In this document: positions 29,914 to 35,617 of the stretch, in pieces | Layout of the letters: every line of letters begins with the position of its first letter | Position numbering within the stretch: position 1 is the stretch's first letter | Origin: a virus | Lineage: Duplodnaviria > Heunggongvirae > Uroviricota > Caudoviricetes | Reading direction: 5' to 3' (one strand) | IMG/VR virus record: IMGVR_UViG_2713897190_000002 | Length of the DNA: 38,367 nucleotides | The notes under the pieces: generated by a model | The model's database searches: none | Told to the model about the DNA's origin: nothing | Seen by the model: only the letters and a program-made list of their open reading frames with translations | Program-made: the position numbers and the translations under genes

Positions 29914-30611
29914 ACAATTGCTCCTTTCAGCCCAAACTTAGCTTTGATTTCTGCGATCTTCGCCAGAGCCTGTGCACGATTTAGAGGTCTACCGCCCATG
30001 ACAGGAAGTTGTTTTACTGGTTCAGGTATCGCCTCACCACGGTTAATTCGCGCGGTCATACAGGACAGTTCATCGGCAGCCTTGCGCCGTAATTCCGCGT
30101 CAGTCAACGCATTGGCCCGCATGTTCTGATACAGGTTGGTAACCAGCCAGTAGTGCGCGTTTGATTTCCACGGATAAGACTCTGCATCCGGATACAGACC
30201 ACGCTTCCGGCAATACTCGTAAACCATATCAACCAGCTCGCTGACGTTTGGCAGCCCGGCGGTAACGGATGCTTCTTCCCGGCACCATGCAACAAACTGC
30301 CCGGGTGATGGCAGAAATGGTCTATTCTGCCGACGGGCAACACGCATTCCGGCGCTCACCTGTTCCATCGTGGTGATCCCGTTTTCCCGGAAAGCCAGAA
30401 CCCACTGGCGGCGGATTTCGTTCAGTTCGTTCTGGTCACGATTAGCCAGGCTCGCCGGGAAAGTTGCCAGTAACTGGCTGAATACACCGTTGATTATCTG
30501 CGCTACCTGCTGTACCTGCGGCTTTTCGTCGTACTGTTCCGGCATGTTGTTGGCGATCCGACGCATCTGCTCACGGTCAAAATTAACCATCTGTGCGGCG
30601 ATGTTTTTCAT
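29910..30611 (-). CDS. P: replication protein P (DnaB helicase loader)
   Basis: 233 aa, same length as lambda P; lies between O and ren; start overlaps the O stop. Confidence 0.92.
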   Translation of the reverse strand: MKNIAAQMVNFDREQMRRIANNMPEQYDEKPQVQQVAQIINGVFSQLLATFPASLANRDQNELNEIRRQWVLAFRENGITTMEQVSAGMRVARRQNRPFLPSPGQFVAWCREEASVTAGLPNVSELVDMVYEYCRKRGLYPDAESYPWKSNAHYWLVTNLYQNMRANALTDAELRRKAADELSCMTARINRGEAIPEPVKQLPVMGGRPLNRAQALAKIAEIKAKFGLKGAIV

Positions 30612-31507
30612 AAATCCACCCCGTAAATCCAGTCAGTGTTTGTCAGGTCGAGTTTTGGTTTGCAGGCTGTCACACCTGCCTGTTGCTTGTTACGGTTGAT
30701 TTCGAGCTGGGTCCACTTGTCGCGGAGTTTGGCCGGGCTCAGCACGTTACCGGACCAGAAGTTGTCCTGGCATGCCCAGCGGAACAGTACACACATGTCG
30801 CGATGGTTACGTCCGTCACGTTCACGCATCAGGCGGATATCGTTAGCCCACCCTGCAAAATTCGGTTTTCTGGCTGATGGCGCGATGGTCTTCACCATGT
30901 CAAACATCCATTCTGCGGCGGTCAGGTCTTCTGCTGTCCCCCACTTGCTGCCGCTCTGAATTGCAGCATCCGGTTTCACCACAGAAAGGTCGTTTTCTGG
31001 CTGGTCAGAGGATTCGCCAGAATTCTCTGACGAATAATCTTTTCTTTTTTCTTTTGTAATAGTGTCTTTTGTGTCCCCCTGTTTTGAGGGATAGCAATCC
31101 CCCAATTTGAGGGATGTTTTATCCCTCGTTTTAGGGGATTTTCCCTCGTTTTGAGGGATACACCATTCTGAGATGTTTTTATTTGGTCCAAACATGCCGC
31201 CTTGCTGCTTGATAATATTCATTCTGACGAGTTCTAACTTGGCTTCATTGCACCGTTTGACGGGTAACTTTGTAATCTCGCTAAGTTGAGAATCGGTGAT
31301 TCTGTCCATTGGTTTATTCCATCCATAGGTTTTACGCAGAATGGCAAGCAGCACTTTAAACTGTCGCTTGGTCAGATCTGCGCCTGAATAAGCCTCAAGC
31401 AGCATATTTGATAGTCTGGCGTAACCATCATCGAGATCTGCCACATTACGCTCCTGTTTGGCAAAGTTACCTCTGCAGAAGTTGAGTATTTTTGCTGTAT
31501 TTGTCAT
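30608..31507 (-). CDS. O: replication initiator protein O
   Basis: 299 aa, same length as lambda O; contains the ori iterons within its coding sequence. Confidence 0.92.
   Translation of the reverse strand: MTNTAKILNFCRGNFAKQERNVADLDDGYARLSNMLLEAYSGADLTKRQFKVLLAILRKTYGWNKPMDRITDSQLSEITKLPVKRCNEAKLELVRMNIIKQQGGMFGPNKNISEWCIPQNEGKSPKTRDKTSLKLGDCYPSKQGDTKDTITKEKRKDYSSENSGESSDQPENDLSVVKPDAAIQSGSKWGTAEDLTAAEWMFDMVKTIAPSARKPNFAGWANDIRLMRERDGRNHRDMCVLFRWACQDNFWSGNVLSPAKLRDKWTQLEINRNKQQAGVTACKPKLDLTNTDWIYGVDL
31075..31160 (-). repeat. ori-lambda iterons (four O-binding repeats) with adjacent AT-rich region (about 31030-31075)
   Basis: Four copies of about 19 bp, TCCCTCGTTTTGAGGGAT-like, on the + strand inside O, flanked by a T-rich tract CTTTTCTTTTTTCTTTTGTAATAG. 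Confidence 0.85.
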
Positions 31508-31539: not shown

Positions 31540-31836
31540 TCAGAATTCCATCTGGATTTGTTCAGAACGCTCGGTTGCCGCCGGGCGTTTTTTATTGGTG
31601 AGTCCATCAAGCGCATACTTAAAAGCCCTGCTAATCGGACTGATGTCTGATGCCATTCCGAAAGCACACAAGACCGAAGCAATAAATCTCCAGTCCGTTC
31701 TGCTTATCTTCGATTCATGACAGCCAATCATCTTTGCCAGACCGCGCTGGGTAATAGCTGACAGATTGATAAGTAAATCTGTTTCTGCGCGATCAACGTC
31801 ACGCTGTGATAGTTTGCTGTAACTTGTTCTTTCCAT
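31540..31836 (-). CDS. cII: transcriptional activator CII
   Basis: 98 aa; C-terminus LTNKKRPAATERSEQIQMEF matches lambda CII; the N-terminal region with its helix-turn-helix is diverged; lies between cro and O. Confidence 0.8.
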   Translation of the reverse strand: MERTSYSKLSQRDVDRAETDLLINLSAITQRGLAKMIGCHESKISRTDWRFIASVLCAFGMASDISPISRAFKYALDGLTNKKRPAATERSEQIQMEF

Positions 31837-31977: not shown

Positions 31978-32193
31978 TTAAGCGGCTTTGTGTTCCGGCG
32001 GGAACACGTCATCAAGACTGACTTTTGCGCCTAACTTGTTTAGGCACGCAACAAGAGCACGGCATGTTTTAAGGTCTGGGAAGCGACGACCAGATTCCCA
32101 ATGTCCGATAGCTCCCTGTGTGCATCCAACTGCCTTAGCAAGTGTTGTTTGAGAGATATTCAGTGACTCTCGATATTTTCGTAGGTTGCTCAT
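31978..32193 (-). CDS. cro: Cro repressor (helix-turn-helix)
   Basis: 71 aa from the internal ATG with GGAGG upstream; MSNLRKYRESLNISQTTLAKAVGCTQGAIGHWESGRR; divergent from cI; the track ORF is extended upstream. Confidence 0.8.
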   Translation of the reverse strand: MSNLRKYRESLNISQTTLAKAVGCTQGAIGHWESGRRFPDLKTCRALVACLNKLGAKVSLDDVFPPEHKAA

Positions 32194-32310
32194 ATGCCCT
32201 CCATAGTAAACACGAATAAAAAAATACAATATGTACTTTGCGAATACAAGTAAAAATACACATTGTGCATGGATGGTTCCAGTACAGAGCGTAATAATAA
32301 GGACATGAAA
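32194..32310. promoter_or_regulatory. divergent pR/pRM region with candidate operators (oR)
   Basis: AT-rich intergenic region between cro and cI with TACAAT...ATGTACT and ATACAAGTAAAAATACA repeats; a motif like AGTACATAT(T/C)GTA also occurs upstream of N. Confidence 0.4.
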
Positions 32311-33003: not shown

Positions 33004-33561
33004 TTGGCAAAAATAGATGATTATCAGCCAAGCCAAGTAGAAGTTGATAAAGTACTTTATTGTAAAAAAATAGTTAACTTTTCTGGCGTTAAATGGAAAC
33101 AGAAACCAAGTCGCTCTGATATGTGGCTACAAGCCCATATCATCCCCTTGGATGAGGATTGTATACCTATACAAGGGCTAAAGTTTGAACTGAAATGGAA
33201 ACCAGATCAGGATTCAGAACCTGATGACCCGATTTCTTACCCTAAAATAAATATTATTGCTTTCTATCATAACAAGAGGGTTTTCGCGGTAGATACCTAT
33301 CACTTTGACAAACACACGAATAGTTACAAGGTCGATCATCCGAAGTACCAAGATATCATTTACGGTGCTCACTACCATGTATACTATGAAGAAGCTGGAT
33401 ACTATAGTGATAGAATAGCGTTTCCAATCGAAGATGACATAAACCCAGATGACCTGGTAGGGTATTGGAATTACTTCTGTAAACATCTGAACATAACTTA
33501 CTCTGGGAGAATACCTTTACCGCTTGAAGATGAGTCGGGGCAAATGGGGTTTGGAATATGA
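33004..33561 (+). CDS. unknown protein A (185 aa), first gene of the two-gene cargo in the rexAB slot
   Basis: ORF about 40 nt downstream of cI on the same strand; apparent TTG start (next in-frame ATG at codon 40); AT-rich; Tyr/His/Asp-rich; no motif recognised; its stop overlaps the start of gene B. Confidence 0.6.
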   Translation: MAKIDDYQPSQVEVDKVLYCKKIVNFSGVKWKQKPSRSDMWLQAHIIPLDEDCIPIQGLKFELKWKPDQDSEPDDPISYPKINIIAFYHNKRVFAVDTYHFDKHTNSYKVDHPKYQDIIYGAHYHVYYEEAGYYSDRIAFPIEDDINPDDLVGYWNYFCKHLNITYSGRIPLPLEDESGQMGFGI

Positions 33562-34310
33562 TGTGCTCAACAGTGATCTCACAACTAGGTTTCGAATGCC
33601 ATCCAATAGGCAAGACCTTGAGAATTATCAGTCCATTCACTTACTGTGATGATGGAGAGCATGTCGGTGCCTTTATCCGTGAAGTCAATGGTAGGTATTT
33701 AGTTAGTGACAGATGCGATGCCTTAATGAATATGGAGGCAAGAGGGATCTCGCTTACCAAAAAACGACTTGATGAGATACGACAATTACTGCTTAAAGAA
33801 GGCGCAGAACTCAATGCTCGAGGAGAAATCATTGCTTGGGCAACAGAAAAGGATGTCGGTGCGATTACATCGAACATAATTAGAGCTGGTATACTCGCAT
33901 CAACTTTGTCGTTAGACTGGTATCAGCCAGTTCAAGCTGAAAAGTTTGAAAGTATGGTTATTGATTATCTATATCACACAGAGCTTAGAGACGCACTTTC
34001 TCTTCGTGAAAACGTATATGGCTTGAGTGGACATCAAATTACCGTCCCTGTAACAATAAAAACCGACATACCTAAATACGTTTTTACATCAAGCGTGAAA
34101 CACGGAGGAAGCTGGAATAGTGCTTACTCATTGCTTGGGAAACTAATTGATCTTAAAGCTTCAAGTGAGGAGTATAACAACAGATTTGTTGTTATAGACA
34201 GCGAAGCAATTGGTGATCAAATGCAACAACTCTCCTTACTCTTCCATGAATCAAGCCAAGTTCTACCATTCTCCAAAAGAGAGACTTGGGTTAAGAGACT
34301 TGCAGCATAA
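33558..34310 (+). CDS. unknown protein B (250 aa), second gene of the two-gene cargo in the rexAB slot
   Basis: ATG overlapping the stop of gene A; AT-rich; followed by a rho-independent terminator; no motif recognised. Confidence 0.65.
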   Translation: MMCSTVISQLGFECHPIGKTLRIISPFTYCDDGEHVGAFIREVNGRYLVSDRCDALMNMEARGISLTKKRLDEIRQLLLKEGAELNARGEIIAWATEKDVGAITSNIIRAGILASTLSLDWYQPVQAEKFESMVIDYLYHTELRDALSLRENVYGLSGHQITVPVTIKTDIPKYVFTSSVKHGGSWNSAYSLLGKLIDLKASSEEYNNRFVVIDSEAIGDQMQQLSLLFHESSQVLPFSKRETWVKRLAA

Positions 34311-34315
34311 TACAA

Positions 34316-34341
34316 CCCGGCCTCAGCGCCGGGTTTTCTTT
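34316..34341 (+). terminator. rho-independent terminator after the cargo operon
   Basis: Hairpin CCCGGCCTCAGCGCCGGG followed by TTTTCTTT immediately after the gene B stop. Confidence 0.6.
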
Positions 34342-34345
34342 GCCT

Positions 34346-34560
34346 CACGTTTGCCCACCTAAAAACACATAACCAATTATATTTATTGAAAAATAAATAG
34401 ATGCAACCCACTAAACCACGCAATTCTGATCTCTCCTTACATCGCCGAGGCAATACATCCACGCTAAAAAACAACACTATTAAATACAAAGCGTTATAAA
34501 AAACCACGCCAACTTACAACAAATTGTATTGATCTTGTAAAGTACATATCGTACTATTTA
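34346..34560 (+). promoter_or_regulatory. candidate pL/oL region
   Basis: AT-rich region upstream of N containing the palindrome AGTACATATCGTACT and ACAACAAATTGT, similar to motifs in the cro-cI intergenic region. Confidence 0.3.
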
Positions 34561-34602: not shown

Positions 34603-34648
34603 GGCTCTTTAAACAACGTCGACTCTCGACTACGTGGCTGAAAAGCCA
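34603..34648 (+). promoter_or_regulatory. candidate nutL (boxA-like GGCTCTTTAAA and boxB hairpin TGGCTGAAAAGCCA)
   Basis: In the N leader: boxA-like sequence followed by a short stem-loop with a GAAAA-type loop. Confidence 0.4.
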
Positions 34649-34746: not shown

Positions 34747-35019
34747 ATGTCCAGAAAAACAGAATTTAAAGGCACCGCAGCTTCTCGCCGTAGAGCTCGT
34801 CGCGCAAATCTGCAAAGTCAGGAGGCGATCAGCTCCGACAAGCTACACAGGCCAACCCCTTCACGAGTGGTCTTGCAATGCAAGCTCAAACCAGCAATGA
34901 GAGCAGAAGTGATAACTCTGACAACGTTGACCAGAAAATATGAAGGTTCAACTTGTCTTCCGAACGTAGCTCTTTACGCGGCAGGCTACCGGAAATCAAA
35001 ACAACTGACGGCGAGATGA
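34747..35019 (+). CDS. N: antitermination protein N (P22 gene 24 / phage 21 type)
   Basis: 90 aa from the ATG with GGAGG upstream; Arg-rich motif GTAASRRRARRANLQ; C-terminus VALYAAGYRKSKQLTAR resembles P22 gene 24 as recalled; the track ORF is extended upstream. Confidence 0.8.
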   Translation: MSRKTEFKGTAASRRRARRANLQSQEAISSDKLHRPTPSRVVLQCKLKPAMRAEVITLTTLTRKYEGSTCLPNVALYAAGYRKSKQLTAR

Positions 35020-35035
35020 TAAATTCATTTGCTAA

Positions 35036-35617
35036 TTACTTGTTTTTGCCATGCTTATCCTGAGCGATAAGTTCATCCATAAGGCTGTCTGCCTTCCCGG
35101 CAAACCTAATGTAGCACTCATGTCTATAGCTTTCAGGGATAACGAAACGGTCGGTATCAGGATATCCAACAGCAGGAGGCCTTCGAACGAGGAGTCCTTT
35201 TTTGAGCAATGAAATTGATTCATGAGCGCCCTTTTCCGTTTGTAGCTGGTTATTAGCGGCTACAGCGAATGCCAAATACGCTCTTTCTCCAAGAGTTAAC
35301 GAATCAAACAAATCTTGCACATATTTTTCTTCTTTAGATTTGCGCTTCTGAGCAGCGAATACCTCAATTCTTTCAGTCACAGCGTGATAAGCGGAATTAA
35401 CAACGCCGTTAAGCACATAGCTAACGCAAAACAACAGGATGTAATACATCCAGTAATGAGGAAGGATTTCTGGACTATGCAGGTTTATCCATTCTTTTAC
35501 GCTTACCGGCATAACAATAATCAATATGATCAGGATGATTAGCATATGAATCAACTGTTTAAGTGTCATTCCTTGCAGGAAAAAATGCATTAGTTCCTGC
35601 CACCATGAGTTGTTCAT
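35036..35617 (-). CDS. sieB: superinfection exclusion protein SieB-like (membrane)
   Basis: 193 aa; N-terminal TM segments (LIHMLIILIILIIVMPV, YWMYYILLFCVSYVL); convergent with N, as lambda sieB is; recalled similarity to lambda SieB. Confidence 0.6.
   Translation of the reverse strand: MNNSWWQELMHFFLQGMTLKQLIHMLIILIILIIVMPVSVKEWINLHSPEILPHYWMYYILLFCVSYVLNGVVNSAYHAVTERIEVFAAQKRKSKEEKYVQDLFDSLTLGERAYLAFAVAANNQLQTEKGAHESISLLKKGLLVRRPPAVGYPDTDRFVIPESYRHECYIRFAGKADSLMDELIAQDKHGKNK

Follow-up and report, generated by a model that had tools for sequence, protein, structure and literature searches.

The intergenic stretch between the cro and cI genes of a tailed virus (Caudoviricetes; IMG/VR record IMGVR_UViG_2713897190_000002) raises the question of which DNA sites the two divergently encoded regulators are likely to read, and of whether the immunity specificity set by these sites is that of bacteriophage lambda, that of another known phage or a new one. 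A preliminary description of the whole 38,367-nucleotide stretch of DNA (hereafter, the window) had proposed a specificity distinct from that of lambda, pointing to a palindrome upstream of the N gene that recurs in the cro-cI gap.

The early region and its two regulators

The layout of a lambdoid CI/Cro switch is present in the window (Table 1): the divergent cI and cro genes flank a series of tandem dyads, and a second cluster of dyads is found at pL. The cro ATG is at position 32193, the first intergenic base being 32194.

Table 1. Features of the immunity region, in the coordinates of the window; promoters are inferred and operators predicted.
Feature	Position	Strand	Remarks
Lambda-like early region	O to N		reversed orientation
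O	30608-31507	-	early region
cII	31540-31836	-	early region
cro	31978-32193	-	ORF; 71 aa, all-alpha HTH_3, recognition helix TQGAIGHW
pR (inferred)	32221-32249	-	-35 TTGTAT 32249-32244, -10 TATTTT 32226-32221, spacer 17 nt
oR1	32222-32238		AAATACAATATGTACTT (cro-sense AAGTACATATTGTATTT); best match to the consensus; overlaps -10 and spacer of pR
oR2	32254-32270		AAATACACATTGTGCAT; centre at -42/-43 from the presumed pRM start; clear of the pR -35
pRM (inferred)	32270-32298	+	weak -35 at about 32269-32275, -10 TAATAAT 32292-32298; from sequence and AP000422 annotation
oR3	32280-32296		CAGTACAGAGCGTAATA; overlaps the pRM -10
cI	32305/32311-32964	+	HTH_3 N-terminal domain (helix TQGGIGHW) and Peptidase_S24 C-terminal domain
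Two unrelated genes at the rex position	33004-34310	+	between cI and terminator
Intrinsic terminator	34314-34335	+	closes the operon of cI and the rex-position genes; equivalent feature in AP000422
oL3	34482-34498		AAATACAAAGCGTTATA; one base off the VT2-Sakai site
oL2	34515-34531		TACAACAAATTGTATTG; one base off the VT2-Sakai site; 3-bp overlap with the pL -35
pL (inferred)	34529-34557	+	-35 TTGATC 34529-34534, -10 TACTAT 34552-34557, spacer 17 nt
oL1	34540-34556		AAGTACATATCGTACTA; holds the palindrome of the preliminary description; overlaps spacer and -10 of pL
nutL region	34603-34647	+	AP000422 'putative N-utilization leftward' mapped onto the window, plus sequence
N antiterminator	34747-35019	+	first gene of the pL operon; Pfam N_peptide, E=1.5e-32

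CI combines an HTH domain with a LexA-like S24 domain, the domain plan expected for a lambdoid switch (Pfam). It had been noted that the C-terminal domain looks like that of lambda CI while the DNA-binding domain and Cro differ, and the comparison agrees on each count. Over residues 82-217, identity to lambda CI is 135/136 (388/420 nucleotides), whereas the N-terminal domain is about 30% identical to its lambda counterpart and aligns with it weakly (E=0.0026 for the N-terminal domain alone); it is without lambda's N-terminal arm and carries a glycine at the residue aligned with lambda Ser45. Cro, for its part, is an all-alpha HTH_3 protein of 71 residues (Pfam, E=4e-12) whose nearest relatives of solved structure are 28tn_A (about 50% identity), followed by a HigA antitoxin and the N-terminal domain of P22 C2 (E about 0.01), with the 434 repressor as a weak sequence relative (E=0.25-0.3); these matches to HTH_3, P22 C2 and 434-type folds indicate that it does not adopt the lambda Cro fold. 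Cro and the N-terminal domain of CI are 35% identical to each other and their recognition helices are nearly so (TQGAIGHW and TQGGIGHW, respectively), which fits two proteins reading one set of operators.

A relationship to the P22/L c2 group is visible in the cI N-terminal domain, whose coding sequence resembles the repressor genes of phages L and SEN22 (about 71% similarity at the nucleotide level, over about 125 nt); likewise, the record of phage VT2-Sakai (AP000422) describes the Cro of that phage as 'similar to bacteriophage L C2'. The recognition helix of P22 C2, however, differs in the alignment from that of the window Cro, and the operators of P22, which are 18 bp long with TTAAG-type half-sites, are unrelated in sequence to those of the window.

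On the N side, the nutL region contains a boxA-like GCTCTTTAA and two hairpins, GTCGAC..GTCGAC and GGCTGAAAAGCC. The latter (34636-34647), with its loop GAAAA, is a lookalike of a lambda-type boxB and runs just beyond nutL as mapped from VT2-Sakai (34603-34643), an annotation that may therefore cut through the real boxB. Directly past N, as in lambda, a homologue of the superinfection-exclusion protein SieB is encoded on the minus strand (35036-35617; PF14163, E=9e-22).

Six 17-bp pseudo-dyads in the window

The palindrome AGTACATATCGTACT upstream of N (34541-34555, plus strand) and its recurrence AGTACATATTGTA in the cro-cI gap (32225-32237, minus strand) are present exactly as the preliminary description had given them, in sequence and in coordinates; they form the cores of oL1 and oR1, respectively. 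Taken alone, the shared 13-mer stands only marginally above chance: the pattern AGTACATATYGTA, with up to two mismatches allowed, has three matches in the window against 0.82 expected, three matches being obtained in 4 of 100 shuffles; when the two intergenic regions, whose GC contents are 33% and 43%, are shuffled, 5.5-8% of trials yield a pair of 13-mers that differ at one position at most.

The observation becomes decisive when it is read as that of one family of six sites. Six 17-bp pseudo-dyads with the consensus wARTACR-nnn-YGTAYTw are present, three between cro and cI and three upstream of pL and N; within the half-site w-A-R-T-A-C-R, the positions A2, A5 and C6 are kept in 11, 12 and 12 of the 12 half-sites of the window, respectively, the half-sites that fit the consensus poorly being TACAACA (oL2, left) and TATAACG (oL3, right). 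The dyad ARTACRNNNYGTAYT, again with up to two mismatches, has 27 matches in the window against 9.5 expected, a number reached in none of 100 shuffles; in this six-site form, the enrichment over shuffled sequence on which the idea of a shared operator motif depends is clear. All six sites are among these matches, and oR1, oL1 and oR3 are the only ones with no or one mismatch; the non-operator matches, 21 at two mismatches against about 9.5 expected, include none in a regulatory position and none that scores near the six sites with a symmetrised weight matrix.

Over the 38,351 positions scored with this matrix, the six sites take the six top places (15.2-20.8), the next match scoring 11.5. Since a test of this kind is circular, the two clusters were cross-validated against each other. 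A matrix built on the oR sites only ranks the oL sites 2, 5 and 6 of 38,351, with the training sites filling the other top places, and a matrix built on the oL sites only ranks the oR sites 1, 6 and 10 of the same number of positions. Judged by motif, the data support oR1 and oL1 as the strongest of the predicted operators.

Promoters, conservation and the unit of recognition

Neither pR nor pL was called by a sigma-70 consensus scan, because the scan demands 9/12 consensus positions while pR has 7/12 and pL 8/12; both promoters were placed by hand and then compared with the annotation of AP000422 and with the relatives. pR falls in the same place as the 'putative major rightward promoter' of that record, and pL maps exactly to its 'putative major leftward promoter'. 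Among the relatives, the -35 hexamer of pR reads TTGTAT, TTGGAT (Nil2) or TTGCAT (720R6, phi458 and Erwinia), and that of pL TTGACC or TTGACT.

The start of pRM is predicted near 32304/32305, from which the cI mRNA would be leaderless at the first ATG, as in lambda. There are two candidate ATGs for cI, 32305 and 32311: the former (MKMKW) is kept in the Erwinia relative (MKRQW), in which the distance of 7 nt between TAATAA and ATG is also the same, while the start annotated in VT2-Sakai and Nil2 is the equivalent of 32311. Given that Erwinia keeps the ATG at 32305, the annotated VT2-Sakai and Nil2 start may be two codons short. The cI frame is also open further upstream, through oR2 and oR3, to a TTG at 32263 and an ATG at 32269; so it is in the relatives from Enterobacteriaceae and Erwinia, and the long form is the one annotated in AP005153. 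As a candidate N-terminal arm, this extension was set aside: it has no Shine-Dalgarno sequence, and the apparent conservation of its peptide (T-x-R-N-N) is explained by conservation, at the DNA level, of oR3 and of the pRM -10.

The conservation of the sites was examined in an alignment of the window with phages VT2-Sakai, Nil2, vB_EcoP-720R6 and phi458 (the latter two about 94% identical). In these five phages, 3 of the 72 columns at core operator positions (2-7 and 11-16) are variable, against 36 of the 99 non-operator intergenic columns (Fisher p=2e-7), and within operators it is positions 1, 7, 8 and 9 that take most of the substitutions, the one at position 7 being an A-to-G change by which the sites also differ among themselves. 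The sequences of 720R6 and phi458 become homologous to the window abruptly, just upstream of oL3, a point that is, to judge from the alignment, the edge of the immunity module. As regards single bases, oL2 has a G in the window where VT2-Sakai has a C (…TTGTTGTA against …TTGTTCTA), a change that gives perfect TACAA/TTGTA arms, and oL3 has a T in place of a C (TATAACG against TACAACG); 720R6 and phi458 have the oL3 variant in common with the window, not the oL2 variant.

More distant relatives were sought by using the Cro protein as query in a scan of species-representative genomes, which returned an Enterobacteriaceae prophage (Cro 80% identical) and a prophage of Erwinia phyllosphaerae (76%). 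In both of them, the matrix derived from the window finds two sets of three sites, one between cI and cro and the other in a cluster 1.2-2.3 kb away. Over the 25 distinct sites of five lineages, A2 is kept in 45 of 50 half-sites, A5 in 49/50, C6 in 50/50 and a purine at position 7 in 50/50. The spacings, too, are similar across genera: 32-34 bp for oR1-oR2, 26 bp for oR2-oR3 in all five lineages examined, 25-26 bp for oL1-oL2 and 29-33 bp for oL2-oL3, the window and VT2-Sakai being identical in this respect (32/26 in oR, 25/33 in oL). The existence of the six sites, their positions, their statistics and their conservation are established on these data, and so, from the protein comparisons, is the domain make-up of CI and Cro. 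Two further contigs, JAJXBQ010000280.1 and JAEZIN010000021.1, encode a Cro that is 99-100% identical; they belong to metagenome-assembled genomes named Segatella copri and 'Bacillota bacterium', and most likely represent mis-binned E. coli phage contigs.

A relative in Avibacterium, with a Cro that is 48% identical and has SQPRIANY in place of the recognition helix TQGAIGHW, is associated with different dyads (AATTTCAnnnTGAAATT), which is the covariation expected of an operator and its repressor. In this prophage of Avibacterium paragallinarum (L012, 3900-4000 and 720-800), the dyads AATTTCAAAATGAAATT, AATCACAATTGGAAATT and AATTTCATTTTGAAATT lie partly between cI and cro and partly in another cluster, about 3.1 kb distant, and appear to form an undescribed putative operator set.

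These comparisons bear on the possibility that the likeness of oR1 and oL1 reflects two related AT-rich early promoters, or chance, rather than repressor sites. Each of the two sites does overlap a -10 and a spacer, both regions are AT-rich, and the bare 13-mer, as mentioned above, is marginal in the window and in the intergenic shuffles alike. Yet four more sites carry the same dyad at other positions with respect to the promoters, the dyad symmetry with its free central triplet is not needed by a promoter, the cores are conserved while the -35 hexamers vary, and the motif shifts when the recognition helix does, as seen in Avibacterium; promoter likeness is thus a most improbable account of the six sites.

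A second possibility concerns the unit of recognition. Besides the palindrome, additional TACAA/TTGTA half-sites had been noted in both regions, and the operators might be shorter TACAA-N(x)-TTGTA dyads, of the 434-like ACAA/TTGT kind, in a register other than that of the 17-mers. In the window, the 5-bp arms of oL2 are indeed perfect (TACAA-CAAA-TTGTA), and TACAATATGTA occurs within oR1; those of the half-sites that lie within oR1 and oL2 are therefore parts of predicted operators. The perfect arms of oL2 are, however, specific to the window, the sequence being TAGAA in VT2-Sakai, Nil2, 720R6 and phi458, and the elements at 32244-32249 and 34535-34539 do not hold as half-sites: TACAA at 32245-32249 is part of the -35 hexamer of pR and varies in the relatives (TCCAA or TGCAA), while TTGTA at 34535-34539 lies within a spacer and is not conserved in them. 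The operators of phage 434 are 14-bp ACAA-N6-TTGT sequences. The comparison with them that the preliminary description had suggested gave no likeness of this kind, ACAA-N6-TTGT having 0 matches in the window; the two systems share ACA/TGT-rich dyads and an all-alpha Cro of the repressor fold, but differ in site length and register. The invariant positions being A2, A5 and C6 of the 17-bp frame, we regard shorter dyads as hardly credible, and the analysis supports the 17-bp pseudo-dyad with half-site w-A-R-T-A-C-R, rather than the TACAA/TTGTA half-site, as the true unit.

Two other candidate sites were discarded. A fourth site between oR1 and oR2 (AATACAAGTAAAAATAC, a direct repeat) has a gap of 15 bp and a mismatched right half, and its TACAA varies among relatives, the element being the pR -35. 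For an alternative oR2 placed 24-25 bp from oR1, no acceptable half-sites were seen by eye, and the annotated oR2 is the one kept in five lineages.

A known immunity type and its predicted switch

The proposal of a non-lambda specificity stands, on the evidence of the motif, of the absence of lambda operators and of the differences in Cro and in the CI N-terminal domain; what does not stand is its novelty, the specificity being, as read from the sequence, that of the already known VT2-Sakai (Sp5) immunity type, whose operators are putative. Indeed, Cro is identical to that of VT2-Sakai (AP000422) in 71/71 residues, CI differs at 1 of 217 residues (S209G, in the C-terminal domain, the N-terminal domain being identical) and N at 1 of 90. 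Of the six operators, oR1-3 and oL1 have the same sequence in both phages, and oL2 and oL3 show a single-base difference each; pR, pRM and pL have the same positions, whereas several bases differ in the inter-operator spacers. The immunity region as a whole is 99.9% identical to that of Escherichia phages ev207, ev017, PhiR57_1 and PhiR63_2, all non-Stx, which are the best full-length matches over the region; cro-oR-cI and oL-N are about 97-99% identical to VT2-Sakai, to the Morioka V526 Stx1/Stx2-II phages, to Nil2, to 2851 and to the Stx2a phages of the PA series, all of which have this immunity type. The region was found in 776 of 5,426 complete E. coli genomes.

The VT2-Sakai and Stx1-phage records AP000422 and AP005153 carry 'putative operator' features for the same six 17-mers, oR1 among them, and further features for pR, pRM, pL and the nut sites. 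The 17-mers are tabulated in Table S5 (Additional file 6) of Yin et al. 2015, citing Fattah et al. 2000 (PMC4587872), where the N-proximal sites are labelled OR1-3 and the cro-proximal ones OL1-3; these labels are swapped with respect to the gene order and to Table S1 of a later paper (PMC10742460), in which the VT2-SA operators are listed again and OR1 and OL1 are identical to oR1 and oL1 of the window. The six sites having already been predicted and annotated for VT2-Sakai, the finding is correct but ordinary: the window contributes one more instance of an operator set that had been predicted and annotated before, with no new element, and what is gained is that the operator prediction is now backed by a cross-validated, cross-genus comparison. 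In a literature search that did not extend to Fattah et al. 2000, the only binding data to emerge were for lambda CI, neither footprints nor EMSA being found for the cognate CI or Cro; querying full texts with the operator 17-mers gave no match, and a search on the names of the closest phages returned unrelated papers only. The switch is of interest since a very common family of E. coli prophages depends on it for the control of induction; the Stx2a phage of O157:H7 Sakai, in which phage induction drives toxin release, is one of them.

The resemblance to lambda is one of architecture. In lambda, too, 17-bp pseudo-dyads form two groups of three, pR and pRM diverge, and pL is about 2.3-2.4 kb distant; A2, A5 and C6 of the half-site are common to both systems (wARTACR here, TATCACCG in lambda), and in both oR2 is at about -42 of pRM and oL1 and oL2 at about -16 and -41 of pL. 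Lambda operators proper are absent, as had been claimed: with a lambda matrix, the scores of the six sites run from -11.6 to -1.2 and those of the operators of lambda itself from +13.6 to +22.3, and none of the eight best matches to this matrix (lambda consensus TATCACCGCCGGTGATA) in the window lies in oR or oL. The spacings differ as well, lambda having 24, 23, 24 and 20 bp for oR1-oR2, oR2-oR3, oL1-oL2 and oL2-oL3 where 32-34, 26, 25-26 and 29-33 bp are found here. With 32 bp instead of 24 between oR1 and oR2, the latter is clear of the -35 of pR, and cooperativity between adjacent sites in the style of lambda is not guaranteed; oR1 and oR2 are about 3 helical turns apart and oR2 and oR3 about 2.5, despite an oligomerisation domain identical to that of lambda in 135/136 residues. 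The non-lambda spacing is found with a lambda-like C-terminal domain, as in the window, and with one that is 46% identical to lambda's, as in Erwinia.

It is highly unlikely that the sites are nevertheless lambda-compatible and the phage in practice cross-immune with lambda, although some observations point that way. In EMSA experiments, lambda CI shifted all six VT2-Sakai operators with an apparent KD of 3.7-6.4 uM, and Fattah et al. are cited for cross-immunity (PMC10742460); moreover, A2, A5 and C6 are common to the half-sites, and the two repressors have homologous HTH regions and nearly identical C-terminal domains. In the same assay, however, lambda's own sites gave 0.2-3.1 uM; the apparent affinities for the VT2-Sakai sites are 10-25 times weaker than those for lambda OR1/OL1 and weaker than that for lambda's weakest site, and the main text of that paper mentions no non-specific DNA control (PMC10742460). 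The lambda matrix gives a negative score to every one of the six sites, positions 4 and 7-8, (nearly) invariant in lambda half-sites, differ here, and the equivalent of lambda Ser45 is a glycine.

Very probably, then, oR and oL each consist of three 17-bp dyad operators that would be bound by CI and Cro dimers, in an immunity system of the VT2-Sakai type carried here on a lambdoid phage. What we infer beyond the sites themselves, namely actual binding, the order in which the sites are occupied, activation of pRM, cooperativity and looping, is modelled on lambda. CI at oR1 would block the -10 and spacer of pR and, at oL1 and oL2, the -10 and -35 of pL, leaving the lytic genes silent; CI at oR2, at about -42/-43 of pRM, would stimulate its own promoter, and Cro, or CI in excess, bound at oR3 over the pRM -10 would turn cI off. 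To the C-terminal domain of CI would fall dimerisation, cooperativity between dimers and RecA-stimulated self-cleavage on induction; probably, as in lambda, the same domain also allows looping between oL and oR across 2.3 kb.

The preferred lambda-like operation of this switch has one competitor, less far-fetched than those discussed above and still rather unlikely, according to which the switch is wired unlike that of lambda and CI could form mixed dimers or oligomers with the lambda-family CI of co-resident prophages. A different wiring is suggested by the non-lambda geometry, conserved from E. coli to Erwinia, and mixed oligomers by a C-terminal domain that is lambda's own. The repressor of phage 933W has been reported to be non-cooperative, which is a hint of such a wiring in Stx phages. 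If so, cooperation between CI dimers might be lacking at oR1 and oR2, or might instead occur at oR2 and oR3, a pair whose spacing is in the lambda range, and mixed CI oligomers would couple the stability of heteroimmune lysogens.

The cargo carried between cI and oL distinguishes the window from VT2-Sakai, which has H0093 and H0092 where the window has a pair of DUF6978-like and DUF1828 genes; at the rex position, VT2-Sakai, 720R6 and phi458 carry different genes or none. The two plus-strand genes of the window (33004-33561 and 33558-34310) have a stop/start overlap; the first has a DUF6978 match below the Pfam cut-off and a PADLOC candidate PDC-M24A (E=5e-4), the second matches DUF1828 and PDC-M24B (E=5e-10), and the pair is a candidate for a defence system encoded by the prophage. 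The Avibacterium prophage has a relative of the second gene (L012, 1694-2467; 21% identity), which likewise follows cI.
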